Source: Moniliella sp. 'wahieum'
Lineage: Eukaryota
Reading direction: 5' to 3'
Assembly (NCBI GenBank): GCA_003971905.1
Contig: RSEE01000001.1
Coordinates: 1,674,001-1,738,000 of the forward strand
Length of the DNA stretch: 64,000 bases
Positions 1,131 to 64,000 of the stretch are shown one piece after another (the stretch's first letter is position 1; every line of letters begins with the position of its first letter). The position numbers were made by a program, and so were the translations under genes. The notes under the pieces were generated by a model. That model did no database searches. It was not told where the DNA came from and worked only from the letters and a program-made list of their open reading frames with translations.

Positions 1131-1532
1131 GGGGGAGGATGGGGATGGGGATGGAGATGGGGGGAGTTGGAGACGGTGGGGCCGGTGGCGAAGCACGCCA
1201 TCATACGGCCACAACAACAGTGCGGGGTATTCGCTATCAACGCACATATGAACGTTCAACGTTCACCCGCTTTCCGCTGTCGAAACGCGCACACATTCCG
1301 CCCGAACACGCTGCGTACGTCAGCAGCCAAGGAAGGTTGGCCGCGCCGTTCCGCAGCCAAACAACTGCCCCCCCACCACCCCCCCCGAGGCCAGCGCAAC
1401 ACCGCCGCACCCACACCCCCCCTCCTCCTTCCGTCCTCCTTTCTCCCCTCCCTTCCTCCCCTTTCTCCTTCTCCCCCACTCCACTCCCACCCCATCCCCA
1501 CCCCACCCCCCCATCCCCACCCCCCCACCCCC

Positions 1533-8299: not shown

Positions 8300-9039
8300 C
8301 CCCCCCCCCCACCGTCCTGTGCGTTTGTGGTGAAACCAAGAGCCAAAGGTGACCTCCACCACCACCTCCTCTTCCCACCCAACAAAACACAACCGAAACA
8401 AAAAAACAACTGTTGTCGCGCAACTCTGATACCGATCCCTGCTACCACGAATAGCACCACCACCTCACCACCACCCACCATCCTTCTTCCCCGTTCCGTT
8501 TCCTCCCTCCTCGGTTCATTTGGTTCCATTTCTTCGTATCTGCTTCTGCTCTTCTCAGCTCCCCCCCCCCCCCCAAGTTCCTTCCTCGGGCGTGGTGACC
8601 CTCCCGTTCTGCGTTCTTCAGTATGCAGTCTGCCGTCTAAGTTCATATCCATCTCTGCCTTGTACCCCTCCCCTACTGGTGTCCGAGCCGTGCATTGCCG
8701 ACTGTCGGATGTGTGGGCGTAGGCGTAGGCGTAGGCGTTGCGTGCGGCGGCCCAAGGGAAGCTATAGATAACGAGATCACTGCGAGTCTAGCAGCCGGTG
8801 GGTGGGCAAGGGCCCTTGGACCACCTCTTCCTCCTCGCGTCGCGTCGTATCGCTATCGCTGCACCGTGCCACTTCCCACACGTCATCGAGGTCATCCGGT
8901 GTTGGGCCCGAGGGCCTGAGGCTCAGGCTCCTGCGACGTCCTGTGCGTGGCATCCTCCCTGGGCTCGCCAGTCCTGCTTCGTTCGTCTCCTCGCCGTTGT
9001 GCCGCCGCCACCTGTCACACTCACGAGCACGTCCTGTTT

Positions 9040-10380
9040 GGCATACTTCACGTCACACGTCACGCGTCACGTCGGACCTCTGACCAGTGACTCAGTGGTA
9101 CCGGTGACCTCACTAGTCACTAGTCACTAGCTTCCACCATCTTCAAGCTTCAGGTATCCTTTTGGGCCTTAGGCCCGATATGTCGTGCGGCAACAAGGCT
9201 AGTGGGGGGGCGGAGCACATACAGCCGCTTGGTACCAATGTCCAAGCGACGGTCATTAATCATTCCCAGTCTTCCCCAACCCCAGCCCCCAGCCGCTACC
9301 CACTCGTCCCGCGGAGAAAAGCTGAGCTGAGGCTGAGGCACTGAGAACTCATCTGAGTACTCTTGAGTTCTGTGAGTTCCGAGTATTAGTACTGAGTGAC
9401 TGAGTGAGTACTGAGTGGGCTTCCGCAGCGAGCATCTCCGATCTCAGCTCCTTTGTTACTCGGTTCTGAGAGGCTTTCCGATCGCAACCATCGCGCTCAG
9501 TCGTTCAATCAACGTTCAACGTTCAACGTGGACCGAGAGCGCTAGATGCTGAGAGGCGCTGGGAATCAGAAGGCGCTCTGTACGGTCACATAGTACGTTC
9601 AACAGCTCAGAAGGAACTTTAAAAGTATAGCTTGTTGGATCGCAGCGCGGCGCCTATATTAGGGCCCAACCTTGGTCCCTACTTCGTACTTGGGCAACAC
9701 ACAAACAGTGGGCACTGAGCTAAAAAGCGCGCTGGCGCTCAGCCTCAGCGCTCAGGCTGAGCTCAGCCTGGGTGTTCAAGTTGAACCGTTGAGCCACAGA
9801 GGTGCGTACATAGTAGCTGCGGGGGAATATGGAATGGCCCATGGCCAATCGAGCGCCAATCGCCAATCGGCACGCGAGCACCGCTCATCGATCGATCATC
9901 CATCCAGCGTCGCTGTGGGTTGGCACATATTTTCCGAACCGAGCGCGGCCGCAACAGAAAACCCCCATAAGCTGCGCAATAATAGTGTGCGCTATATAGG
10001 CGCTACTCGCCCTTCCTTCCTTGCTAGTCTGCCCTAGAGCCTAGCACGAGGACCGATCGATCACTAAACTACATAGAGCCGAGAGGACCGGGTTTTATTG
10101 TTTTGTTTTTGCTAATGGCACTAGGCACTAGTATTCCTTGTAGTAGATCAATCCTTAATCCGGCCTTACTAGTTACTAGTTACTACTCAGTACTCACCGG
10201 CCTCACCGGTCACCAAAACCCGTCTTCTTCTGGGCCGCTGTAAGGCCTAAGGCCTAAGGTCTAACAGCGGAGTTCAGTTTTATCGAGGCAGACCAGTAGT
10301 CATACATGACATCATAGGCCATGCATCAAGGCGGTCACGCGTGCTACATGTGACCTTGAAGCTAGCTTGAAGCTTGAAGA
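9040..10380. repeat. Intergenic cluster of short strand-symmetric tandem repeats (palindromic heptamers)
   Basis: (TCACTAG)n, (TCAACGT)n, (TTACTAG)n, (TAAGGCC)n, (TGAAGCT)n and CTNAG-rich runs read directly. Confidence 0.75.
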
Positions 10381-13300
10381 AGGGAGAGGACAAAACGAGA
10401 GGGAGCACTATATATCCGTCTACCCCGCGTCTTCAGCTATACAAAAAACATTCATCTCTACTACGTCGTATCACATGTCACGGCTTAATGAAAGGCCGCT
10501 TCACCTAGTTGTCTCTGTCTCTATCCCCATTCCTGCCTACCACCAGCGCGCTATATAGGCGCCGCATAATGGGCCTGGGGCTGTGCGCAACTCCGCCATG
10601 TGTGCTGCTACGATTACACTTGCTACTGTTACCGCTACAAAAGGAGAGTGGTAGCTGTTGCAATGGCGGTAGTGCAAAAGGAGGGTTAAGCAAGTCAAGA
10701 GGACTCGACTCCTCAAAAGCTTTTCGAAGTTGAAAAGAAGAGTGTTTTGGAAGGCACGGCAGGAATATCGCCATCAGTGTAAGGCAAAAGAAGTTCCATT
10801 GGAATAAACTCCGGGTTGGGGCACGCACACGAATTACGAAAAAAGGCGCGTAAGATGGCTGGGGTCTCGATGCCCTAGAGTGTATGGAGGCTATTACCAC
10901 ACCATGCCGAATGCAAAGAGTTTCTGTAGTAGATGATTGCAAAATGCTGGAAGAGAGGCATATTTGGCTGTTCAACGATCACCGACACCGTTAGTAATCA
11001 TGGCATTACGATGTCCCACTCCACATGCCGGAAGACGGATCCTACAAAAGGCACACTCTTCTCCACAGTCGAGATTTATCCGCAATAATGTAAGTCATAG
11101 ACATGAGAGCTAGTATAGCCAAATACGAAAAGGAGGCATTGAATTGACTGTTCTCATGACTTCCGTGACTGCTCATATATCGGAAGAATACAAAGACAAT
11201 TCCTCGAATCGGAGCGACCCCAGCATACTATATGCAACCAACGAGGTGAGGTAACACGTGTTATGTGTGACAGCAGGACCATCCAATGCCGCTGGGTGGA
11301 AGACTTTCCAACGCTAGAAGTGATATAGGTGGTATTAGGAAGCCTGACGAAGAAACTGGTCGATTGGACCGTGCTGTATAGGAGAGACTGACGGAATGAA
11401 CCGCACAGGAATCTGGTCACGCGACGCGATCCAAGCGAGCACAATACCCTCGATCTCTACAGTAAAAACGCAGTCAAAAAACTCATTCTCCCTTACGTTT
11501 CGAGCTCTGTAAAACGGCGAAGTAACCCTTCTGAGGAAGGAAGACACTCACGGTTCTCACACAGCCGATTGACAATCATAAATCAAGGGATTCTTCTGCC
11601 CCTACCAGTAAACTGACCGTGGTAAATTTATACGAGATATGCATTCCACAGGGAACGAGGCATATACCGCCGAAGATCGGATGGATCATCCTCAAAAATA
11701 AAGGCGTGGGTGCGTTTCCAGCACGTTTTGCAACGAATGTGTCATAGCACCCCCGCTTTCCCCAGTTCATATAGGAGTATAAGCAAGAGTATCAGTACAG
11801 CATCAAAGAGAGGATAGTGCGGGTATATGCAACATGCGTTTTGGAACTATGGCGGGACGAGGAAACCACACGGCCTAGCGGACGAACGACGGGTCCCGTC
11901 CCTACAAGGTTGCCCTTCAGTGATACTAAGTCATTGTATTGCCGAGCTGGTCTCCCCTCTAGTGCCGGCATGTAGCCTGCCTTCTGGCGCCTCCCTCAGA
12001 GATACCCCTTGCTCACGCGTTGTCATTGTATTGCCGAGCTGTACGGCAAAGAAGACCAGGAGCTCAATGGACGTTCGGGATTGATTGTTGGTGAGCAAAA
12101 GTAGAGAGTAGCGGAGAGGAAGTAGGATGGAGTGGAAGAGAGGGAAGACTAAGAGCTCTGACTGCCGAGGCATCTAGAAGGAGGCATGTAGGTCGGCCAC
12201 ACTTTTCCGCCCATGCGGAAGTAGCGGAGTTAGCTGCTGGATGGAAGTGACTGGGAGGGCCAGAGCCCGGCTATGCTCTTGGCACGCTGCACTAGTGTAT
12301 CAACAGTCTGCCTCAGGTAGGAAATCCTACCACAGCGGTAGGATCCGCCTCAACCTGCCCGTGGTCTCAGTAGTACTCCGCAGTCCGACCTCTCCGTATA
12401 CTCAGTTGCCCAGAAGCACGGACTGGACACGCCGTTTTGAAATGCACTTCTTACACAGAGTACGCTAAACACGCCAGGCTGTTGTTGACGCCTACTATGC
12501 AGATCGGCCCTTGCCGGTAATCTTTTTAGTGCCCGTCCAACTCCCGTTTCACCCACCCCAGTGCGGGCACTCGCTCCCGGCCGGTGCCTATACGCGATAG
12601 AACGGAGTCACCCGCTGGCGAAATATAGTTGTAGCGAGAGAACTCCAGCCAGATTTGTTCTGGTGGTCCATATAGTCTGGAAGTATTATGCGGATCTTCA
12701 CAATGGTTCCTGTTTTCTGTATGTTCTTGTTGTTCACAAGAAGGTCATGAGCCCTCTTATACAAGTGAATTTGAATTTAGAGAGAGGTACATGTGCCAGA
12801 CCGCCACATCCTCCTCCATTCCAGCCTCCCATCCTTCTGGAAATCATCATTCTCCCCTTTGTTCGTTAGCGGTGTTGTCTCTTCAATCGCATTACAGTTT
12901 CAGATGGTTCATTCAAACTCACAGCTTCGACATTTTGGGTATGCATCTTGCTCCACAATCCGTATCCGATAGGGAATGTTGTTAGCATGTACACCATGGA
13001 AATTATCTTCGGAAGGGTAAAATAGAAGGGGCCAAAAGAGGTGATGCAGGTGTGTAAGGAAATGCTACAGGGTATCGTTGTTCGTCCTCTCTTGCATATG
13101 ATGATCCTTTCTATATCCTTCGGCTTATGTATATGATCCTTTTCTATCATTCTTGCATATCATCTCACCGACAATGCGTTGAACATCCAATCGGCGCAGC
13201 GGTCATGACCAAAACTACTATACCCTCGTCTCTTTGATCTCATCATGTGCCCTGCAATCGCACCGTGGTAACCGCGACAGCTCATACTATGGGTCACTAG

Positions 13301-14502
13301 CCGCATGTTTCAGTCTGGTACTGTTTGAGTTCGTCCCATCCCAAAGAGTGTGGGCGGTGCGATTCACTTGCATTGTACCCGGGGAAAGGTCCATCGAAGT
13401 TCAAATTGGTAGTTCCTCTTCTAATTGCGTAGCCCGTCGAATCGTTCTTGAGGGTTATGGCAGGGGGGCAGACGCATATGCCCCAGCCAACTCAACGATC
13501 AAGGTGCGACAGAGCCACCTATACGGTCTTGCGGGTGCAGTGGTTGTTCAGGCACTGTGGGGTGGGGGGGGGGGGGGGGTTAGACGTGTGCTTTGCCGTG
13601 ACGCCACACTGATGTAGTGGCGCCGGTAGCCCAAGCCCAGAATCTTTGCGTTCATTCCTTGCAATATATTCCCTTCCTGGCGGGCATGAATATTCTTTAG
13701 CTCATGTGCAATGCAATACGCCGTCAACATCCTGCTCTCTCGTCTGCTACAGTTTTTGCTGCCCGGACGATCCTTCCCCAGGTATTCCTACTCTACAGCG
13801 CACCCGCCCAGGAAAACCGTGGGTGCTGGGTCGGATTGAGAGGAGGGGGATTGCGAGACGAAGCAAGAGATGGGTAGGGGCCAAGGATACGCACGGTCCT
13901 ACGCCCGACAGTGCCCTGCCTCCGCCGCCAGTTGTTTGTTGGTGGAGCAGGGTGGCTGGCAGCAAAAAAACCGAGCTGAACTTTGGCAAGCGGCCTGGTA
14001 AGAAGCTGCGCAAGACGCGCGCAGTGGCAAGCGGCTTGCGGTGGGTGGCACACAGGCGCTGCGCTTGCTGGGGTGGTGTGTGCAGTGCGGTGCAGTGCGG
14101 TGCAAGGCGGTGCAGTGCCACGCCGTTCTGTGTGCTGTGCTGCGGTGCGCAGCATGCAAGGAGTGTGGCAATTTGGGTTGCTCGGGTGAGAGCGAGTACG
14201 CACGGCGCCGCTCGCCTCCGCACGCACGCACCAGCGTGCTGTGGCGCCGGCTGCGACGAGGCGGCGTGCAAGGGTGTATTGGGGCATACGGCCAGTGTGG
14301 GGACTCCCGGTGCGACAACGGTGTGGGATACGGCTTCCGCGCTGCGGTGGACCGCAGCGGGCGCGGGGCAGTGTTGCGAGCGGTCGGGCTTGGCGAGCAC
14401 CTGCTGTCACCTGCTCGCCCTCCCCCCCCCGTCTGGCCCCCCGTCTGCCCCCCCGCCAGCCGAACAACGGCCGCCACCACCACCTCCCCCCCCCCCCCGC
14501 CC

Positions 14503-22757: not shown

Positions 22758-22856
22758 GCTTCAATGGGTTAGTGGTATACTACATCGTTGCCAGGCACGG
22801 CGCCAGTCTCCGTTTAAGACATCGATGTGACAGGGGTTCGATTCCCCTTTGAAGCA
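22758..22856 (+). tRNA. tRNA-Gly(GCC) with a 28-nt intron (22794-22821)
   Basis: Acceptor GCTTCAA/TTGAAGC, D-arm GGT-TAGTGGTAT-ACT, anticodon stem CATCG/CGATG with TT-GCC-A loop, T-arm AGGGG-TTCGATT-CCCCT, discriminator A, and a downstream T-run Pol III terminator. Confidence 0.93.
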
Positions 22857-23446: not shown

Positions 23447-25052
23447 ATGGCATCCAAGTCGGTTTCCTCGACCACCAAGGCTCTCGGTACGTCTCTTGGT
23501 TCCCTTCCACTGCGTCGCGCTTGTTCTGACTCCCATCGTGGCCCCTTTCAGCAACCCCAGCCAAACAGAAGAAGGTTCACTTGAGCAAGAAGCACAAGCG
23601 AGCTCCCCCTCCCCCCTCTTCTTCTTCCTCTTCCTCCTCATCCGAATCAGAAAGCGATTCCGATTCCGATTCCGATTCTTCGAGCAGCTCCAGCTCAGAA
23701 GAGTCAGATGTGGAGATGGCGGAGCTTGTCTTGGTTGCACCCAACAGCAGCTCCGACAGTGACAGCTCCTCCGACTCTGACTCTGACCGACTCCGACTCC
23801 GACTCCGACTCGAGTTCCAGCTCGAGTTCTAGCTCCAGCTCGTCCTCCGATTCGGATTCGGATTCTGACTCCGACTCCGACTCCGACTTGAGCGATTCGG
23901 ACCACCAACCGGGCCAAATTCTCATCTTGCAGCAGGGCCATGAGTCCAGTTCCTCCAGCTCCAGCGACTCTGATTCGGATTCTGACTCTGACTCGGACTC
24001 GGACTCGGACTCGGACTCGGACTCTGACTCGGACTCGGACTCGGATTCTGACTCGGACTCTGACAGCAAGGGCGCCGAGGTTGTGGCTGTGGCCACTGCG
24101 GAGGTGAGTTCGTCGGAGTCGGATTCTGATTCTGATTCGGATTCCGATTCGGATTCCGATTCGAGTTCCAGCTCCAGCGACTCGGATGATGAGGAAGAGG
24201 AAAAAATGGTCCTTGTAGCCCACGAGGTTCCAGAGGAAGAGTCGGACACTTCAAGCACGTCTACGGGGGAGAGCATCAACACGGCCGAAGCAGCCGCTGT
24301 GGTCGTTGCCGAGCCGGACTCGGATTCGGATTCGGATTCGGATTCTGATTCGGACTCGTCCAGTGATTCGAGCTCCTCCAGCGACTCGGACTCGGATTCC
24401 GACAGCTCTGACTCTGACAACGACGAGCAAGGCGCGGTGATCGTTGTCCAAACCAAGGGAGAAAGCTCCGATTCGGATTCGGACTCGGATTCGGACTCGG
24501 ATTCGGACTCGGATTCAGATTCGGACAGCGACGACAACGACGCCCACGAGGGTGTAATCATTGTCGACGAAGGGAGACGACTCGGACTCGAGCTCGAGTT
24601 CTGACTCTGACTCTGACTCTGACTCTGAATCTTCTAGTGATTCGAGCTCGGACTCGGACTCGTCTAGCGACTCGAGCTCCGACTCGGACAGTTCGAGCAG
24701 TTCGGACTCGGATTCCTCCAGCGATTCGGATTCGGACTCGGACTCGGACTCGAACGAAGAGCAAGTGGTATTGATTGTTGAAGAAAACAACTCGTCTTCC
24801 GATTCGTCTGATTCTTCATCCGAATCCGACTCTGACTCCGACTCTGACTCGTCTTCCTCTTCGGAGGAGGAGGTGCCCCAGAAAAAGGTGGCTGGTCACA
24901 AGAGGAAAGCCTCCCCATCTTCGGATTCCGAGTTGGAGCCAGTAGAATCTGCCAAGAAACGGTCCAAGAAACGTGCGCTTCCTATGCCTGTGCCCCGCGG
25001 CCACAAAGAGCGAAAGGGATCCAAGTCGTCGCGCAAGTCTCAACGGGCCTAA
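23447..25052 (+). CDS. Ser/Asp-repeat intrinsically disordered protein with basic termini (probably nuclear/nucleolar); intron 23487-23551
   Basis: [30 protein letters not shown], then (SD)n tracts with varied synonymous codons interrupted by short hydrophobic motifs, and a K/R-rich C-terminus. Two apparent indels. Confidence 0.75.
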
Positions 25053-29063: not shown

Positions 29064-29224
29064 TGTCAGCGCCATCATGCATGCAGCTGATCACGCATCA
29101 CGCATCGCGCTGTTCTATCCGACTCTCCTCTTATGTTCTGCCCCTAACGGGCTCCTCTCTTGGAATAGATCCATCACCTCCCTCTGTCTTCTTCTTTCCG
29201 TAGGCCTTTGTCCTCGCATTAACA
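29064..29224 (+). repeat. 5' LTR (161 bp)
   Basis: Direct repeat of 34348-34507, running TGTCAGC...CATTAACA. Confidence 0.97.
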
Positions 29225-29234
29225 GGTTGAGCCC
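29225..29234 (+). promoter_or_regulatory. Primer-binding site, half-tRNAiMet type
   Basis: GGTTGAGCCC abuts the LTR. It resembles GGTTATGAGCCC (complement of the tRNAiMet anticodon arm) minus 2 nt. Confidence 0.6.
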
Positions 29235-29332
29235 ACACATCCTCTGAGTAGGCGGAGACTACACCTCTCTCGTCTGCCCGCCTGAGCCCTACTTATATTT
29301 TTTTCCCACCTACCCCCACCCCACACGGCTGA

Positions 29333-30779
29333 ATGCCTGGTCTCCGTTCCGGAGCCGATACTGCTTTTCCACCCCTTTCCAAGAAGAAGCGTAACCCGCG
29401 CGCCGAAAGCATGTCTGCCGACGCCATTCTCCCTGTCGAAGCTACCCATGAGGAGCCCGCAGTTTCCATTCCTCGTGTCGAGGCTACCCAAGAGGAGCCT
29501 GCAGTTCCCCACGCCACCCCGCCGCCCCCGAGCGTCTGGACGGTGAAGACGCCCAAATTGCCCACGATGGCACCCCCCCCTCTGTCGAAGGAAATCACTC
29601 CCCGAAAACCAACCTAACCCACCATGAGCTCATGTTCCTGTTGCATCTTCAAGATTTACACCCCGAGTGGTCTACGGAACAGGCACAAGATGCGATTCAC
29701 GACCTCGCATTCATGCACGAATTTGCTTACTTTGCCCGCAAGTACCGCATTCAAGGTACCGCGGCGCTGATTCCCAATTGGTTTCCCCCAGTTCGAACAT
29801 CTGCCCACAGCCCCAGCAGTGTTGACACTTTCCCACCTCTGGAAATCCCTTCTCATCAGACACGTTCTGTGGAGGAGGAGATGATTAGGGCGCTGGCTAA
29901 AGGAAACAGCTTACCCTCCTGGGAACTCGGAACGACGCACTGGCTTGATTATGACTATGATACGCGCAACCAGCTCTCGGCATACCAGTTCCTGAACCTA
30001 GTCGTCAACGGCCCCTCTTCCCCTGAGGAAGAGCTGATCGACAGGCGGCTCGAGCATGTCCTTTTGACCAAATGTGACTCGACCACGCAGAGTCATGTTG
30101 CCTGCGGTTCGGCCTCAGGCCTGTACCGCAAGATGTGCGAGCGCAATCGTCCCACCCAGGTCAAACTTGAGAGTGATGTCAGTTCCCGCCTGGACACACT
30201 TAAGCCTGCGGCGCATGAGACGGCGCGGAAGTTCCTTGCCCGCATCGAGCGGATCGTGGGTATGGGTGAAATGATTGGACTCCCGCTCAGCGTTCGTGCC
30301 TGGAGCGTTCTTGCCAATAGCTGCCCTGAGCCGAATCGCGTGAAGGAGCAACAGCTCCAGGGCAAGACCCGGAGCCAAGCGCTGCAGTTCTTGAACATCG
30401 AGGACACAGTGCTCGTCACCAAGGCTGTTTCCTCGCACAAGGGCAAAGGAGGGCGCGCAGAGCGCAATGGTACCTGCCGTCTTCACCCCAATGGCAGACA
30501 CGCAGAGGCCCAATGCTGGTCACTGCATCCGGAGTTGAAGAACATGCCGATGTCGAGCAGCTCGAATAACTCCAATACTTCCCATTCGGCCACAGCAGTT
30601 AGTCGCTACGCCAGGCAGGAGGAACCCCTCCGCCACCGATGTACTCGCCCGGCTATATGCCGACGTACTACCCCTCACCTCTGGTTTTACCAGCTCCGGC
30701 ATTCCCACAGCCAACTAGCCCTACCGCGAACGCGCAAGGCCTAGCCCCCGTTTCTTTCCCGCCTCCTGATCGCCAGTAG
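29333..30779 (+). CDS. gag: Copia Gag (two apparent indels), with a CHHC-type zinc knuckle
   Basis: ORFs 29333-29617, 29632-30744 and an open frame 30603-30779. Knuckle CRLHPNGRHAEAQC (C-X2-H-X4-H-X4-C) followed by WSLHPEL. Confidence 0.75.
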
Positions 30780-34281: not shown

Positions 34282-34347
34282 CCAGCTGGCTCTTGATTTG
34301 TCACTCTTCCAATCTCGTCGGATCCTAGCGTCGAGTCGTGGTGGGGC

Positions 34348-34507
34348 TGTCAGCGCCATCATGCATGCAGCTGATCACGCATCACGCATCGCGCTGTTCT
34401 ATCCGACTCTCCTCTATGTTCTGCCCCTAACGGGCTCCTCTCTTGGAATAGATCCATCACCTCCCTCTGTCTTCTTCTTTCCGTAGGCCTTTGTCCTCGC
34501 ATTAACA
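34348..34507 (+). repeat. 3' LTR (160 bp)
   Basis: Direct repeat of the 5' LTR, preceded by G-rich TGGTGGGGC. Confidence 0.97.
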
Positions 34508-36878
34508 CCATGCCCTCTGCTCTTGCTTCTTGCCCACGAATGATTGCTACATCCCTTGACCTAGTCTCGACTGTGGTCTCCCTGTCCCTCACCCTAGCCC
34601 CGACTGTGATAGTAACCCATTAGGACGGTCGCACCTTCTCGGCCTTGGGCGGTCGCACCTAACCCTCATACAGGTCTCGACGTCTCAACTTTGGAAGGAC
34701 CCCCCACCTTCTAAAATTCGTTCAACGTTCCAGCTTCAAGCTTCAAGCTTGAAGCTTCCATTCTTTACAGCTTAGGCTTACCTTATCGACTTTTTCAACG
34801 TTCATTCAATGTTCAACGTTCAATCAACGTTCAAACTCCTATCCAACGAGCCCTACGGCCTAAGGACAAGACCTCCGACCTAAGACCTGGAAGCTCTGAG
34901 GATCTGAGGATGTGGATATCTACTCGTACTCAGCGCGGAGGCTCAGCGCGAGCGAGCTTCGGGGCCTCTGGGCCTCTGAGCCTCTTGAAGCTTTTGAAGA
35001 GCTTCCGGCTTTTGAAGAGCTTGAAGCTAGCGAAGCTTGAAGGCGTTGGCGCCTGCTGAGCGCTGAGCGCGCTGAGCGCTGCCATGCATGATATGTGACA
35101 CACTGGTGCAGAAGTGCCTAGTGCCCAAGCTTGAGTTTCAAGCCCCGTTGTTCCAAAGCCACGCTGCCACACTCTGCCACACGTCACATGTCACAATCTT
35201 GTGCGTCCATCGATTTGGCTGAGCGCTGCTCAGGCGCTGACGCACTGAGACGGGCGGGAAAGGTGTTTAGGTTGCTCTTACGGGGTACTAATAGTGGCTG
35301 CAAGCGAGAAACGGGCGTTCCTGTCCACTGTAAGCTTACTGACAACGTACGTACCGTCTTGTGTACGTACTCAAACTACGCCACGCGGACCACGTTCTCC
35401 ACATCACAAGTTCAAACGCTAAACTGTGTAACTGAGTGTTGGGGTTTGGGATCCTACCTCAAGGGTTGTCCAGGGGCCAGCAACCCATTGGGGGGAGCGT
35501 GCCCATTCCAACCTATCCCAACCTGTCCTATCCCAATCCTTCCTCCCGGCAAGGTGCAGCAGGGTGCAGGAAGGGTAATCAGTACGTACAATCAGTGACC
35601 ACTAAGCGCCTAAGCACTAACAAGCCTTGTATGGCAGAGAGGTGTGGCAGATGCAGCAGGGTGTCGCAGGGTGTAGCCCGCATTTAGCAGTATCCGGTTG
35701 CCCGGTGAGGCTGAGGCCTGTGGCTAGTAAGCCTGTAGGAACTGAGAACTAAAGTTATGCGTTACGCGTTACCGATCCGGTCCCCTGCCTCCCTGTGGTT
35801 CTCAGTATCGAATCGATAGTCGGAGCTGTTTGAAGCTTGAAGCTTGGTAGGATACGAAGTTGCTACCAGCACTTACTAATGATTTATGACGAACCTTGAC
35901 TAGCTGGTTGCTAGTTGTCGTTGCTAGCAGCGAAAAGTAGAGGGTTACCGGTTACTGGTTACGGTTACGGTTACTAGGTTACCGTTACTGATCACGTCGA
36001 TCATCGATCACGAAAACAATCATAGAAACCATCGCATCATTGCATCATCGACCACCAATCATACGTCGGACCGTCCCGTCTGGTCTGTCAGAAAGATCCA
36101 CAGAGACGGGTACCGATCGGAAGTTTCCATGCCCATCAGCCTCAGCCTCTTGGATCTCAGAATTCAGCCCCACTAGCCACTAGGCCCCACTCGGCCTAAT
36201 CCATAATCCTGTAACAGGTACCCTGGCTCGGGCCTTGGCTACCCTGTCCCAGCCAAGGGGTGGCGTAGTGTCGGGGTTCCACATTGCGGTGACCTGTGTT
36301 GCCCAATCATCCATCCTTGAAAAGCAACCACGCTTACGACACCTTGCCACGAGGACACCCTTGGCGGGCGATGCGGCTGGTGCGGCTGGTGTGGCTGGGC
36401 GGTGCGGCTGAGTGGGGAAAGGTGCAGCCGTCGAGGCCGGAAGCGGGATCGATCCTAGATCTGTGAAATCGGCGTCTAAAGATCTGAGGATCTGAGATGT
36501 GATGCACATGCATGGTGCAGATGCCCGATATACACGGCAGAGTGTATAGCCGTTAGCCGTTCCGGAGCTGCGCCAGTAGCCGCCGGCTGGTTGCGACAGC
36601 CACTTGCCGGGTGGAGAGCTGGGATAGGATGCGACCAGTATGGCTTCTTGGTCCTAGTAATCTCCCTCGGGCCGCCTAAACCCGAGGGGCTGTGCTGCTT
36701 TATGCTTGTGCTTAGTTGTGCTTTGCATTGCATTGCTTTATCGCGTTGCTTTGCACTTTGTAACTGCTCATACGTTTCCTCCTACTGCATCCCCGCTTAC
36801 CACCATCACCATCCGTCACCTAGTCACGCTGGTCACTCCAACCAATCCCCCCCTCGCCCGCCGTCCTCGACAAGCTTC

Positions 36879-40010: not shown

Positions 40011-40461
40011 ACAACCGTATAGTATACCAGTACTAGACCTATCCACTGATGACTGATCCTAGCGGTCACCCGCAATAGCCCAAACGACAGAGAACTGAGA
40101 ACACACCCGCACATGGGCAGGGGGGGCGGGCTGCCTTATACATCACCTATATCCTATCAGGCCCCCCGCCCCCATGAGGCGAGCGACAGCGACAAAGTAA
40201 AAGTTGCACGTTTCCCATCCGTATTCTACTACTAGTCCTACACGTTCAACGTACGCCGTCCGTCGGAATGGTCAGTACTGCGGACGGCGTACTGAGCACA
40301 CGCAAGACTGAAAACTGAGAATTGAGCTCACGGAAGACTGAGAACTGAGAACTGAGGATTGAGCTCACGGAGGACTGAGGACTGAGGCGACTCCCAAGCT
40401 TCAAGCTTCAAGCTTCAAGACGAAAACTGTGCCACGATGCCACAATGGAATGGAAATGGAC

Positions 40462-40519
40462 TGGGATGGGATGGGATGGGATGGGATGGGATGGGATGGG
40501 ATGGGATGGGATGGGATGG
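40462..40519. repeat. (GGGAT)n microsatellite
   Basis: Perfect pentamer run. Confidence 0.92.
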
Positions 40520-45395: not shown

Positions 45396-46993
45396 GGGGG
45401 GCGGTGGTGGTGGTGGCGGCGGCGGCGGAGGAGATGGGATACGATGGGATGGGACGGATGGGCTGCGTTCAGGCTGGGCGGCGTGCAGGCAAGGGACGCT
45501 GGCAGGGCGATCTGAAATTAGGGATCGAATGCTGCAAGGAGGGCGAGGGCAGAGTGCCGGCCAGTGCCGGCCAGTGCGGGCCAGTGAGGGCACAGTGCAT
45601 GGACGCGACAGGAGAGCGTACGGCCGACACGCGCCGTCGGCTGCCCCCGTGCCGCTGCCCGCTCCCGCCGCCGCCGTGCCGTCCGGCCGCGCACAGCGCT
45701 CCCGGGCCGGGGCAGCGCGCACGGCGGGGGTGTGTGCCCCTATGCGCGCCGGGCACTGGCCGCGTGCGGGGCGCCCGCGCCGTGGCGAGCGCACGCGACA
45801 CTGCTCCCGCGCCCACAGAGCCCGCGGCCGGGCGAAAGACGCAGCGGCGGGAGGGCAGTGTTGGGTGCGGGGAACGGTGAGCGGGGGAGCGGTGAGATCT
45901 CAGACGCAGCTGGGCGTGGCGGAATGCGGCGGTAAGCTGGAAGAGGATCGGATTCCGATCCAGATCCAGACGGCATGCTGGCTCAGCGCTTACTCACGCT
46001 CCCTCAGACTCAGATCCCAGTCCCAGCCGGCCCAGCGCGCCTTCCCATTTGAAATGGCTACTTTCAGCAGTCAGCGCTCGCAATCGAATCGTGCGCAGGG
46101 CGTCAGCGCTGAGGCTCAGCGCTCGCCAGCGCACAATCCGAACCTGAGCCGCGACAGAACGTTCTCTGGCTCGGCTTGGCGCTCAACATTTCATTGCGCT
46201 GCGTGGCAGCCAGGGTGCAGGGTGCACGCACTAGTGACTAGTGACGTCAACATTCCGCATTCAACTTTCAGCTTTGTATGCCAAGCCATTGACTTACCGC
46301 TAACCACTTACCAAGTACCGCTTATCAGCCTCAACCGCAAAACGTCCATCCCAACCCACAGGCCAACGTCGCTCGCCCATCGCACCCGCCTCTCAGCATC
46401 CCACATCTAATCTCAGCGCTGCCAGCCCAGCCTCACCTCACCCCCTTTTCCTGCGCACCCAACACCCCCTCTCCACTCCCCCAACTCCTATTATGCGTTT
46501 CGCATTGTTTTCTCTCGATCCATGTGCCAGTGCCATCGGCCCTCTCCTTTTCTTTTCCCCCTTTCCGCACCAACTCTCGATATCTACGCGCAAAAGGGGG
46601 ATCCGTCCCACGCCCTTGCTTCCTCCTTTTCGCACATCTCCAATCGGCACATCGTATCTTCCCACAGGTCTCCTCTTAGATCGTACTAGACCGTACCGCC
46701 GTCCGTTGTCTCCCATCGTACTCAGCTCGCTGTGTTGCTGAAAGTCGAACCAGACCTCAGCCTGAGGGGCATACGCGCTCAGCCTGAACAAATACTTACC
46801 TACCCTGGCACCCTCATCAAGTTCTACCGCCCAAAGTGCCCCGCTTCATCTCTAAGTTCCATATCGGAGGGTGCAAAGAAAATGTGCAACCCTACTGCAC
46901 CCCCCCACCTGCACGTGACGGCTGGGGGGCTGGCTGCGCCAATCATCGGGCATATGACAGAGTCGCGTCGACGCGTCCCTCCACCCACTTAAA

Positions 46994-47350: not shown

Positions 47351-49644
47351 CTTGAAAGGAACCCACGCGACATGCTGTGGTACGGGGAACCGACGCGGCT
47401 GATGGAAGGCTCGCGCGACTGGGCAGATGGAAAGCTGGAGGAGGAGGTTGGATGATGAAGATGATGCAGCCAAGTGGAGACGAGAGGTTGCCTGTATTAC
47501 TGAATCAATTGGCTGGAAACGTTCAGGAGTTGGACAGGAAAGGCGGGAAGGGAACGAGAATGGAAGGTGGGATAAAGGATCCCCACCAATCGAGGATGCT
47601 GACTGTTGGTTGGCCCCATTTTGGTAACCCCCTTCTGTCTAAGCCCCATCGCACAGCGAAGCAGACGAAGCTGCTATAGAGTGCGACTTGGGAGCACTCG
47701 CGATCCTATGGATCAGCTGCAGTGCAGCCTTCAGACAAGGCGTGAAAAGGCAAAGTTCAAGCAACATCTGAATTGAAGGGAAGGAGACAGAGAGAGAGAA
47801 GGGAGAGATGAAGTGAGCAGGGCGCGCGCGCCCTGCGAGCGGAACTCTTCCGCCCGGTTAAGTGATCGTCACTGATCCACCAGAGTCGTGCAAGGGAACC
47901 CCAGCACTACCCTCCAACAGAAGCAAGTGAAGACCAGTGGGAAGGCACTAAGAATGTCATCCGATAGCACTTCCTCGTTTCACATGTCACACCCAACTAA
48001 GGCCCAGGACCCCGCCTCGCATCACCGGCTCCGTCGGGGCAAAGGCCAATCAGTAATCAGGGCTCAGTGTTCGAAGTCCAACGGGCGGTCTACATGCAGC
48101 GCATGTTATTCCCGTCAAACGCGCCCCCGTGCCCACGTCAAGCTCACGTCAAGCTCACGTCAAGCTCACGTCATGCGCGTCAAGCGCGTCAAGTGCGTCA
48201 AGCTTCAAGCTTCGAGCTTCAAGCTTCGAGATGGGTCCGAGGCACGACGGTTACCGGGGTTACCCAGTTACCCAGTTACCGAGTTACCGGTTCCCCCTGT
48301 AATTGATGCTATAGACTGGTGCGACTTGACTTGGGAACATTCGTCCCGATCCTAGGGATCACACTTGCACACAGCTGCAACGCAGCCTTCAAGGTGTGAA
48401 GACATGGCAAAGTGTGAGCCACACGAACTACGTCTTTCCACCAACGTCGGAAGGGAAATGGAAACAGGAAACAGGAGGGAGAGAGGAAGGGGGGGATACA
48501 TGGTGCATGGTGGAGCGAGCACAGGCGGTGCGCAACGTGCGAACGGACCTTTCTCCGCCTGGCCTGGCTAGTAGGCGGGCATAGGGCCGTGCAGGGGAAC
48601 CCTAGCACTACCCTCTCTCTAGCGCTTGGGCCTTGTCGTTTTAATAGCGCAGATTAGCACGGCAGGGAACGTAGGTTAATTTTTGGGTGGCTGGGGCGGG
48701 GTACGGTCGGTGCGGTTGCAGTTGTGCCCACAGCCATCGAGTCATCGACGTCGAGTCATCTAGGCATGGACATGTGTACTGGGGACCAAGGAATCCCACC
48801 GTACAAGTACCAAGTACAACTAAGCCCGATAGAGGCGTTCGGGCGACCGGACGAAAGAGCGGATTAGGTCGACCGTCTATGTCCGCGTATCGCCAAAAAA
48901 ATCCGTCTACGTCCAGGTATCGCCGTGCTTTCCATCCGTGGCTGCGTTGCTCCTTGCTGCGGTGCCCGCTGCCGCGCCACACGCCCTGCCACACACGCCG
49001 CAGTCCACCGAGCCGAGGTGGGGCTATGCGAAGCCGCGAACGGGTTTGAGGAGCTGAGCGGCTGAGCGCTGGCCTCAGCCTCAACATGATGGGCAGAGAG
49101 GAAGTACTAGATAGCTGTAGTGCGTTCCGTTCCGGCACATGTGGGCACGTGGAGCGCGGAGCTCAGAATCCGCGGCTTTCTAGCTGTAGGTCTCCTATCG
49201 ACTATCGTAGATCGCACCCGAAGGGGGAAGCGTTGGAGAGGCTATTAGAGCTCAAATTAGGCTCTCAGAGGGAGGGAGAGGGAAGGGGTTGGCTTCTCCT
49301 GGGTCAGGCGATGGGGACTCCAACAGATTCCTTCAGTGTGGCTGGCGATGCATGCCAGCGATGGCTTGGAGTGAGTGTTTTGAGTGTTTGAGTTGAGGCT
49401 GAGTCCAATGGCGCCCTCGCACGGACGGGGATAAATTGAAGCGCCGAGAGTACGCATTTGGGCTCTCAGACTCAGCTCTGCCTTCCTCCTTTTTTTTCCC
49501 TTATATCACCCTGCACTACCCATATGCCCCCCCCATCGCACACCTGTTCCCCTCCCGTTTGCTCGGCCCAGCAGGCTTTGCCCACGCCTCTTCCTGTTCT
49601 TCCGTGCTGCTACGCGCTGCGTGAACTTGACGACCACACGTACC

Positions 49645-55028: not shown

Positions 55029-58000
55029 GCTGGTGGGGACGGCGATGGATGGTGCGGAGGATGTGGTCGTGAGAAGTACAGATGGGGGTGCTGGCGGTGA
55101 TGCTGGCGGTGGTGCTGGCGGTGGGGATGGTGGGAGTGCGCTTGGGGGGCAGGATGGGCAGAGGGTGTGGATCGGTGGGTGGGGGCGCGGGGCGTCACGA
55201 CGCGGGGCCTCCGCAGCGCCCCAGCCCAGGGCCCAGGAGGGACTCTAATCGGAGCGGGTATACTGGGCTAAGCCTTAGCGCTAAGCCAAGCCAAGCCTTG
55301 CTATTGCGGATGCATGATTGGCCTCGCTGCTTTGAAATTTGACGGCGCAGCCCAAACCAAAACACCCTGCAGGGCCTGATCGATGATCGGCAGCCGCAAG
55401 ACACGGGCGCAGACAGCCGCCGTGGCAGCGCACGACGCAGTCCAGCGTGGCCACGCGAGCCTCAATCGAAGAATCGCTGCTCGGAGCGCTGAGGCTGCAC
55501 TGCTGCATTCCAATGCATGCGGGTGTCCGCCCGGCCCGGCCAAGCCGCAGGAGACCACTGTCCTGCTCCCGACACTGAGTACTGCGGGGCCGGGGGAGCC
55601 GACTGCAGACTGGCACATCGTGAGCCAGGCACGGCGCCGCGCTGCGCCACACGTCGCTTCCGCTCGGAGGCTCCGGGCAGCACAGCAGCGCCCGCGAGCG
55701 CCGCAGCAAGCAGCCGCAGCGCTGCAGTGTCGCCGTGCCCGGCAGGGTTACAGGGCGCAGGTGACGCACCCCAGCCGCTGCGCCACATTCGGACGAATGG
55801 ATGCGCTGGCCTGACTCGCCTGGTGCGGCGCGCTCCGGTGCGACGCAAGGCACGACGCAAGGCACGACGCACGCAGGCCCAAGCCTGCGCCCCTGCGCTG
55901 CCCTCTGCGCGTGTGCTGCCTTCTTTGGAAGGCGGCTCGCTGCCCCTCAGAGTCTGTCTGTCCCTCTCTTCGGCCTCGCCGAGCCATGCCAGGCCATACA
56001 CTACCGGGGACATCCTCACTAGTCACTAGGTCACTCCCGATTACCGGGTACCAGCACCCCTGACCCCCCTCTACATCCACACTGCAACTCCTCTACCGTC
56101 AACGTCATAATGTGTAGTCGACGTCAATTCAACAAGGTCCCGCCGGTTATCGAAATCGATACGAATGTCTTGAGACCCCTGAGGGCCCATTATGTGCATT
56201 ATGTCTATCCTGGATTCCGGATTCAGTATCCTGTCTTCGGGCGTTTCTCCATGCACTGCTATTTTCATCCGCCCAGTGTAAGGGTCGGGCGATACGGTGT
56301 GAGACCAAGTACCAAGAGGTCGAATGGAGACAAGATCGACGAGAAGAGCAGTGAGATCGGTGAGGTCTGGGAATCATTACCTGAATTAGCTAAAGGACCG
56401 TGCACCCACAAAGCACGCCTTGCACGCTCCACGCCTCAGGCTGCCTCAGCTGCGTCTCACCTATATTGGCAGTTTGGGTGCTGCAAGCCACTGCTCGGGT
56501 AACACTGCGACTGTGGCGGAGTGGCATGTGGCAGGTGCAGGTGGCAGGTGCCCTGCCGCTCTCGTCCATGATCTCGATCAATGCTGCGGCGCCCACCCCC
56601 ATCATGCGTCAGCGCGTCTCCCTGTCACACGCCCACCACGGTGTCCAGGACGACGGGACGACGGGACGCGGTTGGGCGTATCATGTTACCCAGGCCATAT
56701 ACCATCGAAACGTTCCAAAAAAGGTTCCAAGAGATAGCCTCCCTCCCTTCCTCTTCTGTTCTTTTCTTCTCCATCCGTCTTCCCTTCTTGCTACCCTGGC
56801 CTCAGGCCTCAGGCTCAGATTCTCAGAGCAGGGAAGGGTGGTGAGCCTCAGCGCTGATCCAAATATACATTGAGTGTATTATGCCAGTCTGCCTGGCAAG
56901 CCGTTCCGTTGGAGCGTCGCCATCGCGCGCTATCGATTATCCATCGTTATCACAGAAAAGAAGAATTCCTCAAGAATCTGGCACCTATCTTTTTCTCTTC
57001 TCCTTCCTGCCCCTAACCCTCAGATCTCACGTCGCTTCCTTTCGTGTCTATATCATGTGTCAAGACTTAAAGTTTGAATGGAGGCAGAGACGCGAGACGC
57101 GAGACGCGTCTTGTTCACACCAGGCTACTCTGACATATCCAACCGTGCCTTTTGCTGCATCTCCCACCCACGAAAGTATAGTATAGCAGGATCTACCACG
57201 TTCATTCGTGTCCACACGCGCTACCTCGGGTACGGACTGGATGGCGAGCACCAGAGGTCCTGATATCCTGGCGATCCCCCCGGTTCTAGCATTGGGGGCG
57301 CTACCAAGTAACACCCGCAAGATCAACGGGTCGTTTAGGCGTAGCGTCTCCCTGTCCGGGCTTAACCTCTGGCAGTGATAGACGCAGTACAGCAAATAAA
57401 GAGGCCAATCACATTAATGTCGCACAGCAGGTCTCAAGACCTTGGCCATCCCCGACTTCTCGTCTCCAAATAGGACCTAGTGGGAGACATTTCCCCTTTT
57501 GTCAATATAAAAGGCGTCTTCTTTACAACGCTGGTCACTTTGACTTGGGCACGGCACGCAGCGCGTTAGCATCGATTGGTTCACATGTAGTGCTCTTCTT
57601 CCCTCCACGTACTGATTTAGGGCGAGTGCGAACCCGGCCAAAATCCGCAACATGTGTTGGCTTGTTCTTAGTGGGGAAGAAGCGCAGTACATTGGATCGG
57701 AAACGCATAGCAAGGAGAGAACGAAAGGGGGGGCGGACAACCGAAATGAGACACGAGACGCATAATTGGAAATTGGAACGACCTTCTCAAGAGCTACAAG
57801 CTTCTGGAGCTGTACAAGCGAGATCACAGTCTCGCTGTCACTTAATGATATAGAGGTCGTGCGATGTTTCGCAGGATTGCTGGGGTAAGGTTCGGGCGAT
57901 GCAAGTAAAAGCCAAGAACCAAAAGGTAGAAAAGAATTCCCGGTAGACCCGGTAGGATCAGAGGACAAAGAAAGGGGAGAGAGAAATCTATGAAAACGAA

Positions 58001-58087: not shown

Positions 58088-60142
58088 AGAGAGAGTATAG
58101 CAATCGCATCAGGACTCATGGCTCAGGTGCTAGGAGGCGGCCAGGGCTGTCCTTAGACTGGATATGTGGGCAGAGGGTTATAGAGACGGGACAGAGGAAG
58201 GTATGGGGGGGGGGGTTACATTCGGGTGCGATGCGAACTCTCCGTAACATACGGCCATTTTGGGACGGTATACCAAAAGAATTGCCCTTTTTGCATGCAC
58301 GTATCCTCGGGGAGGGAAGAATAATAAGTGTGAAATGCATCTGGCAGTCGCTAGATAGTATCCGGTCGACATCCAAAGGTGGGCGTATGCAGCCTACTAA
58401 GCCGCCCACGAACACAAAAAAGGGGGGGGCATCTTCTGCAGGTTGCGACCTTTCAACCGTCGGGGGGCGACGTTGCGTGTGGCCAATTGAAGGAACCATC
58501 TTAATGGACCAACTTTACAAACATGATCTTCTTCGCCAACCATGAAGAGGGGAATTTCCGTGTGGTGCCATGCCGACGACCCCGCGTAAGACCGGTACCG
58601 CTCTTGGATTGCTTCCGAGCTGTCGCTTGCAATGAGCCAAGGAAAGGCGACGGGGAGATAGAGGCTCCTTCCGGCTACCCATCATCTTCAGCCTGCTTCT
58701 ATCTCTTCGTGGGGCGCCGACCCGTACATGAAGAGAAAATGGGCGATCCGCTCGTGGTGGAATGAGAGGGCAATAAGGATTCAGATGTCTAGATGCCACC
58801 GTCCTGGGCTATGGTTTTATAGGAGCATGGCTTATCGGAACGCTGTTCGTCCGGGCAGCAACCAAAAAGGCACTGTCGACATCGGACATCTCTCAGTCTG
58901 CCTGGGTCGGTTGATGACCTGCCCGACCACAAGTGCGAGTGGTACGCCATGTAATACCGCGGCTCATCTTGACACTCATCATTTTGGATCGCATTCCACC
59001 AAAAGGCGCGGTCATTAAGGATCCGACGTACTCCAAGTTCAGTCTTGGCCTACATGGGCAGGCTGTAGATACTTGTACGGACGGGCACGGGCTTCCGGGT
59101 TATTCCGCCCCGGTTCCGTTCCCAGTCCGGCGGGTTCCGTCCTTTCTTCTCTTCAAGCTTCAAGCTTCATCCATCCATTTTCACCTTCTGTCTGCGCTGC
59201 GCCCGCACAATACTTCCAGAATATCGATCACCAGAACAGAACTGGCTCAAGTTATTCGTTATCTATCTCGCTGCAACTAGTAGTTAGAACACGTGTGACT
59301 CCGTCTATCGCGTATCGGGACCGACCGGGAGCGAGCGTCCGCACTGGGGGGAAACGGGAGATGGACGGGCACTTAAAAGATTACCGGCAGGAGCCGATCT
59401 GCATAGTAGGCGTCACCAACAGCATCGCGTGTATAGCGTACTGTGTGTAAGAAGTTGGACTGCGGAGTACTGATACGAAGGGCCGGTAGAGGCGGGTCCT
59501 ACCGCAGGTAGGGTGTTCTACCTCAGGCAGACTCAACGTACTCAGAACTCAGATCAGACCTCAGCTCCTCAGAAGCCATCACTAGTCACTGGTCGCCGTG
59601 GCTGGGCAGCGGGCATGGCATGGGCTGGAATGGATGATGCCGGGTTGCTTGGCTGGGGATGCCGGGGATGGGACATGGATACAGCGGCTGGACGGCTGGA
59701 CCGATGGGATGTTGGAAATGGTCCGAGCGGACATTTACTGGTTGCCTGGTATCATGGGACTGAGGCACGGGGGCAGTGTTTCCAATGGGCCGCCGGCCAC
59801 TCTCCCGTGGGGCGACTAGGAAGATTCGAGATTATTCCAGCCACGATTATCTCCGTTGGGAAGGCCTATGCTTATGACTGTTGTGGCTGGGGGCCAGCCC
59901 TGCGACAGACTGGGGTGACAGGCCGATTTAAAGCCAGCTCCCCCGGGGCCTGCCGCGCGTCTCTTCTCTCCCCCCACCCTCTGCCTCCTTCGACCTCGCC
60001 CTTGTCGTGACGCCGCGCTGCGCTTTTCCGCTTCCGCGTCATCCTTGAGCGACTAGTTGGTTCTTCCCGCCTCCCGCCACCGCCACCCCAGCCCCAGCCC
60101 CAGCCCCAGCCCAAGCCCCCTGATAACTTGCATCATCCCATC

Positions 60143-62109: not shown

Positions 62110-62402
62110 ATCCGCATCTAGTTTTCTCCGATCGCTCGCCCTGTCCGGTCGCAATGTAATGCTGAATGGCGGCACAAGCCAGCCCAACTAGACACATCTG
62201 CTGCTATAGCCACTTCGCTTGAATAATCGAAGTCACCTACAACGCCATAGAGAAGAAGACGCGGCAGAAGGGCGGAATGGGCGGAACGAGGATGGGTTCT
62301 TCTAATGAGGCCTGAGGCCAGTGGCCACCGGCAGCCAGTCTCGCTCCCTTGCCTGCGTCTGTCCCTCTATCCCTCCACCACCGCCCCTGCCACTCGCCCG
62401 CC

Positions 62403-62832: not shown

Positions 62833-64000
62833 GCGCTTCTATCCCACCTCCCAAGCTGTGCCAATCGATCCACATTGCTTGACCCCCTCCCCACTTCTTC
62901 CATAGACTCGCAACCGAGGCATCGCGTATCACCAGACATGCGGGACCAACGCACAGCATCGCCTCTAGCAGCCTCAACCCGCACCTCACCAATTCCTGGG
63001 ATCGGGGATCTATGCGTACCCCCGCTTTTGGTGCGGCGGGGCAGATGGTCCTTTGCTCGCGCCTCCATTCACCGCCGAGAAGAGACAACCGTTTCCACGC
63101 TCTAGTCCCGATACGAAAAGGGCAACGCTTAGGGTAGCAGAGGAGAGATGGAGGAACGGTGCACACAGTTGTTCACGTTTGATAAACCCCGATCTGGGTG
63201 CACTGTACGCCTGCTCTGTTGAAAACATGGCAAGCATCAATTGGTACCTGCCAGGAGCCTGTGGGCCCCAGAGCAGCTCGCCCTGCTCCGGCACTCATGT
63301 CCAGCGGTGGAAGCAGTTGTCTTTTCTTGTATGCAGGTAGGGTGGACTGCATCGAAAGGGAAAACGTGGAATAGGTCGAACGCAGGCACAGGGGACAGGT
63401 GCAGAAGATAGTGTGCTTACCTGTTGTCCCCACCTTCCCGCATCAGCTTCAGTCCGTCTCAAAAGGGCACCCTCCCGTGGTCCGTCGCCATGAAAAAGAG
63501 AAGCGGTGGAACCCCCCACAGATTGGAACGCTGAGCTCAGTGAGCGCTGCGCGATAACGCTCATCGATCCTCTCACCTGGAATGTCGCATGTCGTCTGTG
63601 TCGTCTGTCCCACGGTCGAGCGAGCACGGTTGATGTGGGCTGGGTCGGCCAACGCACAGCATCATCCAACCGTCCCGTGGGACGGGGGTGGCGGGAGCCA
63701 GAGCGGAAGCGCTGCGCGTGGACACTCCGAGTCGGAGGAGGCCAAGGCTGGCCAAGGCGGAGCGGCGAGCAGAGCAGCGAGTGGGTGTGGCCGGCATTGA
63801 AAGTTTGTAGTCGTGGGCGGTGGAACGTGGAACGTGGGGCTTGGCGGCTCGTAACGCGCGCCTTGGCTTGAAATGGAGGTGGAAGCTTGAGCTTGCTGCC
63901 CCACGCCTCCCACGGCTGCTATCCAGCAGACTCAGTACTCAGTTGCTCAGGCCAGCCGCCTGGCCAGCCGCCAGGCACAGACACCGGCACAGGCCCAGTC

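Follow-up and report, generated by a model that had tools for sequence, protein, structure and literature searches.

Period-7 palindromic arrays with T-N-A junctions in the intergenic DNA of a basidiomycete

Why should short tandem repeats of unrelated sequence, lying between the genes of a fungus, be built on a single symmetric plan? A first-pass annotation had described such repeats within positions 9040..10380 of the DNA considered here, the unit of each being a 6-bp palindrome that begins with A and ends with T plus one further base. These palindromic heptamer arrays are real. All of those originally listed are found at or near the positions given for them, although four (9141, 9390-9415, 9736-9768, and 10195-10214) prove to be exact runs of 10-13 nt or imperfect copies rather than multi-copy arrays. 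The region that holds them is referred to below as hub 1, and coordinates are those of the window, that is, the whole 64-kb stretch of DNA that was analysed. The arrays of hub 1 are as follows.

9110-9130: TCACTAG, three copies
9143-9152: TCAAGCTTCA
9405-9414: TGAGTACTGA
9509-9529: TCAACGT, three copies
9745-9754: TCAGCGCTCA
10166-10185: TTACTAG, 2.9 copies
10203-10212: TCACCGGTCA
10241-10259: TAAGGCC, 2.7 copies
10364-10379: AGCTTGA, 2.3 copies

The window is eukaryotic and fungal, from a basidiomycete. Its PheRS-beta open reading frame (ORF) is 86% identical to assembly contigs, has its best named match in Tilletiaria anomala (60%), and shares 51-60% identity with many other basidiomycetes, so that the source is a poorly sampled member of this phylum, probably Ustilaginomycotina-like. 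Genes split by introns encode a CoA-binding protein, a KH protein, a SAPS protein, a KRE6/SKN1 glucan-synthesis protein, PheRS-beta, RPS10, SGT1, two GSTs, asparagine synthase, and a Tim10 protein. Two further elements complete the gene map.

22758-22856: tRNA gene, 99 nt (Rfam, 54 bits; missed by ARAGORN)
29064-34507: copia-type LTR retrotransposon, 5.4 kb, with integrase and RVT_2 domains

The copia insertion is recent, to judge from 161-nt LTRs with 99.4% identity and from the perfect target-site duplication of 5 bp, CCATG, that surrounds it; each LTR also carries ATCACGC in 2.4 tandem copies, a near-family heptamer. The tRNA gene, with its length of 99 nt, may have an intron inside. Coding DNA was defined as the ORFs with a Pfam match (25.8% of the window), a GC3 frame plot having been dropped as a mask because its signal was too weak. 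Two other repetitive features belong to this background. At 12305-12693 and, inverted, at 59203-59533 lies a repeat of some 400 nt, about 80% identical between its two copies, for which neither Pfam nor Rfam gave a match; the copy near 59.3 kb has arrays of the present family on both sides and the copy near 12.5 kb has none, and the alignment of the flanks was too weak for a duplication event to be inferred. Positions 23600-24900 form a long open region of hexamer repeats (GACTCG/TCGGAT units) with many internal direct and inverted matches, whose translation is rich in serine and aspartate and has no Pfam match.

Across the window, exact tandem runs with a period of 7 and a length of 14 nt or more number 55. 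In 21 of them the unit is a 6-bp palindrome plus one base, compared with 5.7 expected by necklace counting (244/2340) and 7.2 by permuting the letters within the unit, so that palindromic heptamers are clearly over-represented. The geometry first proposed is also borne out, since 20 of these 21 units have the form A-NNNN-T (about a quarter would be expected), the exception being GGGCCC+A, and 13 of the other 35 period-7 runs lie one mismatch away from the family where 7.2 would be expected. The neighbouring periods have no such surplus of symmetric units; for them the observed and expected numbers are 25 and 20.0 (period 4), 31 and 30.1 (period 5), 5 and 5.1 (period 6), 0 and 0.1 (period 8), and 3 and 2.2 (period 9). 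The same holds for looser direct repeats: 52 of 194 period-7 units contain a 6-bp palindrome against 24.4 expected, 41 of them with A..T ends, and periods 6 and 8-12 remain at expectation. The odd palindrome centred on TNA that had been noted in every array is an automatic result of the geometry, yet it is enriched in its own right, with 228 T-N-A-centred palindromic 7-mers in place of 142.5 (z = 7.2) and the other three centre classes at expectation.

Rotation of the unit yields a sharper rule, namely T-N-A followed by a 4-bp palindrome (pal4), with a 10-mer form in which pal4 stands between two identical T-N-A triplets. This 10-mer occupies 48 positions in 42 loci, whereas 60 third-order Markov simulations gave a mean of 1.4 (sd 1.2, z = 40), so that the control census for which the annotation had asked, run here within the window, returned a strong enrichment. 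When all 64 triplets were entered in the scheme XYZ-pal4-XYZ, only TCA/TGA (33 loci with a palindromic spacer, 37 without) and TAA/TTA (5 with, 8 without) stood out against a chance ratio of 0.067, and the strong effect is therefore limited to T-N-A junctions. Nearly every core is allowed: 14 of the 16 possible 4-bp palindromes are used, as the earlier description of many different cores had implied, with ATAT and TATA absent and AGCT present in 10 of the 42 loci. T-S-A repeats at a distance of 7 bp show no enrichment as such, for those with no complementary spacer pair (16) are near chance and those with both pairs number 41; the two classes with one complementary pair (15 and 13, about 5 each expected) look, from that excess, like decayed perfect cores. 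With spacing k between the T-S-A words, palindromic spacers peak sharply at k=4 (41 against 1.4 expected) and show smaller excesses at k=3 (20 against 4.9), k=5 (5 against 1.0), and k=2 (8 against 4.0).

Most loci hold fewer than two full copies of the unit, and runs of 10, 11, 12, 13, and 14 nt occur 1, 6, 9, 6, and 6 times, respectively, with the mode at 12 nt and not at 14. Where two extra bases are present they are placed on one side, (0,2) or (2,0), in ten cases and split (1,1) in one. Four of the six multi-copy arrays begin exactly at T, and 8 of the 42 runs extend by less than 2 nt on both sides. In a hand tally of boundary phase, 27 of the 42 runs had an edge exactly at T-N-A, which is not significantly different from the 24.6 or so expected.

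Placement in the genome is far from uniform. The intergenic location described earlier holds for the window as a whole, since one of the 42 loci lies within a Pfam-supported ORF (P = 6e-5), and no locus was found in the 5.4-kb copia element or in the 3.4 kb of non-coding DNA beside hub 1 (10481-13900). Two hubs of 1.3-1.4 kb each, both in unusually long intergenic regions, share no homology apart from the arrays themselves. The remaining loci are scattered, mostly upstream of genes and in some cases between convergent gene ends, and arrays are found both 5′ and 3′ of genes, including just after a stop codon. The hubs and the arrays beyond hub 1 are listed here.

1251..1265: AACGTTC, 2.1 copies, about 50 nt upstream of the ATG of the CoA-binding-domain gene (1204, minus strand)
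9040..10480: hub 1, 13 loci of the T-N-A/pal4/T-N-A type (9.0 per kb), among which 11 different cores occur
34700..36010: hub 2, 10 loci (7.6 per kb), beginning about 200 nt past the copia 3′ LTR
34728..34762: AAGCTT array with one spacer G instead of C, 11-bp perfect stem (-11.3 kcal/mol, z = -6.1)
40395..40419: (CAAGCTT)x3.6, longest of the exact arrays, with the ends of two convergent genes on either side
45890..46250: region upstream of SGT1 (minus strand), with ACTAGTG in 2.3 copies, two TCAGCGCTGA, TGAGATCTCA, and a 19-nt odd palindrome
48130..48290: mini-hub, (CACGTCAAGCT)x3 that shades by way of 9-mers into (TCAAGCT) units, followed by five GTTACC words spaced 8-9 bp apart
56016..56029: TCACTAG, two copies
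56798..56814: GGCCTCA, 2.4 copies
59151..59169: CTTCAAG, 2.7 copies, about 1.1 kb upstream of the asparagine synthase gene
62306..62319: TGAGGCC, two copies, between the asparagine synthase gene and the Tim10-family gene
63930..63943: ACTCAGT, two copies

Other words accompany the family in these regions. Hub 1 mixes in tandem copies of CACGTCA, CGCCAAT, GGCACTA, and other dyads, and the hubs hold tandem TGACGTG, CCAAT, ACGCGT, and TGACTCA words together with a general excess of odd palindromes (118 against 68 expected); GTTACC arrays occur at two loci. Rfam and tRNA searches returned nothing in the hubs, positions 8500-14000 giving only a chance-level miRNA match (E = 0.72). An identical 15-mer, GCGCTATATAGGCGC, with a TATA-like core within a near-palindrome, is present in exactly two copies 559 nt apart in and beside hub 1 (9989-10003 and 10548-10562), its copies within three mismatches being no more frequent than in shuffled sequence, and another TATA-like word follows the array at 10364-10379 by about 30 nt. 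The 10-mer TCACATGTCA is found on the plus strand at four dispersed intergenic sites (10471, 22526, 35184, and 47980), and at 22533 it belongs to a palindrome of 17 nt that lies just upstream of PheRS-beta. Long odd palindromes in which CTGAG is paired with CTCAG around a single G or C lie at 8921, 9756, 46114 (19 nt), and 46761 and represent a second symmetric arrangement of the T-S-A word. A perfect (TGGGA)x11.6 at 40462-40519 lies beside the AAGCTTC array, between two convergent genes.

The pattern is not peculiar to this assembly, because mixed arrays of the same kind occur in eukaryotic metagenome contigs. Three copies of AAGCTT+S were found at no fewer than 121 metagenome loci (at least 121), and among the matches listed is a set of contigs of about 50-53% GC that carries eukaryotic genes; in contigs of this set, and in a small number besides, the seed array lies next to or near further A..T palindrome arrays, namely AACGTTA, ATCGATT, ACCGGTA, ACGCGTT, AGCGCTG, and ATCGATC. 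One contig, L026, is agaricomycete by its Maf1 protein (best named matches 60-68% identical), and in an agaricomycete-like contig pair, 99.2% identical, arrays stand about 150-210 nt before the ATG in the same way in both copies. Density in the metagenome is much below that of the window, at least 32 non-seed 10-mers being present in 449 kb of mixed loci among the matches listed, and many of these 32, in AT-rich DNA, may be due to chance. Many other matches are low-GC marine contigs, related to one another, whose long multi-variant heptamer arrays (e.g., CTGATCC, CCAAGCT) are a different phenomenon and were excluded as support (L001, L002, L013, L025, L032, L035, L038, L046, L049, L056, L061, and L072-L078). 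That the arrays of the window arose through sequencing, basecalling, or assembly is scarcely credible, given the same array types, mixed neighbouring cores included, in independent metagenome assemblies of other basidiomycetes; an artefact, moreover, would not respect coding DNA (1/42 loci in Pfam-supported ORFs) or a young copia element that contains no locus at all.

It is the orientation of the copies that weighs most against a fold-back origin. Among 57 occurrences of TxA-pal4-TyA, the two spacer bases are the same in 48, complementary in 7, and neither in 2, from which it follows that the arrays are direct tandem duplications of a nearly self-complementary unit and not inverted copies. 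The central base in the 48 same-spacer cases is C or G in 41 (plus strand C 30, G 11); it is unconstrained and mostly tracks the local C>G skew. The fold-back origin put forward in the annotation, whether by inverted duplication or template switching nucleated at T-N-A or by hairpin-capped breaks without direct duplication, predicts complementary spacers, because a folded-back copy would complement the central base, and a direct repeat of fixed period is instead the dominant signal. Odd palindromes with arms of at least 5 are indeed in excess (118 where 68 are expected, the excess being present in each of the four centre classes), CTGAG is paired with CTCAG in several of the long ones, a spacer flip in one array makes a 25-nt palindrome, and seven 10-mers are fully palindromic, but fold-back is disfavoured as the main process and is in our judgement very improbable. 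The accompanying idea of P-nucleotide-like additions can be kept if it is recast, the palindrome then being the joint at which two direct copies meet. Slippage of a microsatellite that favours self-complementary units, whose slipped strands or flaps fold and whose symmetry is perfected by quasi-palindrome correction, is somewhat less remote although still improbable. Polymerases elongate palindromic repeats in vitro with the help of hairpins, flap-hairpin models of repeat expansion exist, and the present units are self-complementary save one base, with cores broken in one pair at about 2.5-3 times expectation, consistent with turnover around a symmetric attractor, and with array edges more degenerate than centres. 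The stable intrastrand fold expected of a hairpin-promoted microsatellite is, however, absent from the four constant-spacer arrays examined, which as single strands reach -1.6 to -4.3 kcal/mol (z from -0.4 to -1.4), a value equalled by 20 to 77 of 200 shuffles and matched in behaviour by two asymmetric heptamer arrays; a strong stem occurs in the array at 34728-34762 only. Such a process should also enrich symmetry regardless of period, whereas periods 4-6 and 8-12 are at expectation, and thermodynamics would prefer G..C ends to the A..T ends seen 20 times against 1. Weak folding and the restriction to period 7 and A..T ends thus make hairpin-stabilised slippage a poor general explanation, and most loci, with less than two full copies, are too short for it. 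The arrays do resemble microsatellites and promoter tandem repeats in being short, head-to-tail, and intergenic, some adjoining one another, with degenerate edges, and differ from them in being locked to period 7, in the self-complementary unit with T-N-A junctions, and in the low copy number.

The arrays thus combine a fixed period, direct orientation, restriction to T-N-A, arbitrary palindromic cores, avoidance of coding DNA, and clustering. We tentatively favour the reading that they are products of a mutational process, driven by a transposon or by a host nuclease/repair pathway, and not binding sites. Briefly, direct duplications with a 7-bp period would arise at two-fold-symmetric, T-N-A-centred sites in accessible intergenic DNA, where staggered symmetric cleavage 7 bp apart, followed by fill-in, would create a target-site duplication. 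This duplication would be left behind on departure of a cut-and-paste element or related nuclease, and the joint between the copies would be remodelled through a hairpin intermediate into a palindrome of arbitrary sequence, such that a target a b T N A c d would become a b T N A c d d' c' T N A c d, with a one-sided run of 12 nt; later slippage would add copies. Here the cleavage, the hairpin step, and any transposon are inferred from the form of the arrays.

Several features point in this direction. Exact symmetry combined with free sequence suggests copying from the complementary strand rather than base-specific recognition, and the freedom of core identity (14/16) likewise suits a copying mechanism better; the fixed direct period of 7 bp and the pyrimidine-N-purine centre argue for a two-fold-symmetric staggered cut, and the modal one-sided run of 12 nt is what a single hairpin-resolved joint would predict. 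The mutational reading is further favoured by the same spacers (48/57) at period 7 only, by the k=4 peak (41 against 1.4), by the near-chance level of non-palindromic spacers (16) with the one-pair classes as core decay, by the exact start at T of 4/6 multi-copy arrays with an unconstrained central base, and by the location of loci in two non-homologous hubs within long intergenic regions, one with a recent copia insertion. Both the fixed-length direct duplication and the arbitrary palindromic joint that an excision footprint should contain are therefore found here.

Known elements provide partial parallels. Elements of the hAT7 family in rusts and Kyakuja elements in agaricomycetes make 7-bp target-site duplications in Basidiomycota (PMC12730594), excision of the hAT type forms hairpins on flanking DNA (PMC5499845), Ac/Ds excision in Candida leaves diverse footprints with short deletions or palindromic P-nucleotide insertions (PMC5873905), and ABR1 of Agaricus is a non-autonomous element of the hAT type (PMC10051438). 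Footprints of the hAT type resemble the arrays in their short fixed-length direct duplication, their arbitrary palindromic joint, and their location in accessible DNA (PMC5499845, PMC5873905); they differ in that footprints vary, whereas the arrays are uniform in structure, multi-copy, far denser, and without an element in the window. Likewise, hAT7 and Kyakuja (PMC12730594), and ABR1, share with the arrays the 7-bp period and the phylum, and none of the three was found in the window or, in the literature consulted, in Ustilaginomycotina. DDE transposases and integrases use symmetric targets that are base-specific and statistical, such as GCTNAGC for Tn10 and N-Y-S-R-N for Mu; these are dyad-symmetric with a pyrimidine-N-purine centre like the arrays, and GCTNAGC is among the odd palindromes seen, but the flanks in the arrays are exactly complementary while being of any sequence. 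The known 8-bp target preference of hAT elements places T and A differently, and the 7-bp duplication of ABR1 is said to have a consensus.

Other excision schemes were considered and rejected. Were the duplication one of 3 bp, extended by two bases from each transposon end, about nine element families would be required; a duplication of 5 bp with 2 P nucleotides added should be accompanied by an asymmetric sister class, for which a hand reading gave about 4-5/44 against about 2.75 expected; an 8-bp hAT duplication with 1-bp loss yields T....A units and not A....T; and the geometry does not fit a Helitron, IS91, or topoisomerase origin.

The mutational reading is weakened on several counts. Searches of the 64-kb window revealed neither a DNA transposon nor a transposase domain nor a TIR pair with a 7-bp duplication on its flanks, and the window therefore offers no matching element, with TIRs or a transposase and a 7-bp target-site duplication, for the supposed footprints; a MITE/TIR search for long inverted repeats and for 7-bp repeats flanking TIR-like ends returned only the serine/aspartate-rich coding repeat and array artefacts. 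The density of 42 loci in 64 kb, and of 9 per kb in hubs, is far above that of usual footprints. A hairpin model needs nearly constant bookkeeping (2-3 P nucleotides and an equal loss), and real footprints are diverse. The tally of boundary phase (27 against about 24.6) is not significant, the 8/42 runs with short extensions are explained only through later mutation, and the literature examined documents no T-N-A-centred 7-bp target for any element. Finally, the same words recur at several loci with variable spacing (AGCT in 10/42, GTTACC at two loci), which also fits selection.

Selection is indeed the basis of the main rival, a cis-regulatory or chromatin role, which we regard as possible though rather unlikely. 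The arrays would then be homotypic clusters of palindromes bound by dimers, or else would act as a structural signal (such as nucleosome exclusion, an origin, or a recombination hotspot), and small tandem duplications would have multiplied them in promoter hubs. Avoidance of coding DNA (1/42, P = 6e-5), the frequent position upstream of genes, and the recurrence of identical words at separate loci with variable spacing speak for it, as do the near-family heptamer carried in tandem by the copia LTR and the arrays at about 150-210 nt upstream of the ATG in the metagenome contig pair, whose 99.2% identity is too high to inform on conservation. The tandem words TGACGTG, CCAAT, ACGCGT, and TGACTCA of the hubs belong here too, being classical factor sites (TGACGTG CRE-like, ACGCGT an MCB, and TGACTCA an AP-1 site). 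Against it, the 14 cores have the A..T ends, the 1-nt spacer, and period 7 in common, which no single factor family explains; a dimer site extending beyond 6 bp should have complementary spacers, and these are outnumbered by identical ones, 7 to 48; and some arrays lie between convergent gene ends or just past a stop codon. The base-specific motif that a factor cluster would share is missing, only the T-N-A junction and the symmetry being common to the 14 cores, in line with the earlier argument that one transcription factor could not account for them. There is also a real chance that the arrays mark an undescribed process. The annotation knew of no named feature class, and full-text searches, largely of literature outside the subscription journals, on heptanucleotide or palindromic tandem repeats in fungi and on the repeat strings gave neither such a class nor a description of the pattern, so that absence is not proven. 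More specifically, it is conceivable, if again rather doubtful, that T-N-A-centred palindromic heptamers in discrete intergenic hubs about every 25 kb reflect an undescribed sequence-symmetric duplication process in basidiomycetes, or a structural code whose reader is a protein responding to dyad symmetry and not to the bases themselves. What probability the mutational, regulatory, slippage, fold-back, and artefact readings leave goes to some explanation beyond them.

For the biology of the fungus, the hubs might mark sites of recurrent breakage, such as meiotic hotspots, transposon landing pads, or origins. The rule of T-N-A, a 4-bp palindrome, and the same T-N-A is simple enough for a test across the whole of any basidiomycete genome assembly. 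Should the arrays be scars of recurrent symmetric breaks, they would provide a map, from sequence only, of repeated cutting and repair in a fungal genome, together with a signature by which the enzyme at work could be sought. Should they instead be functional, they would represent a regulatory or structural grammar set by symmetry and spacing and not by base identity, for which current motif tools do not look.
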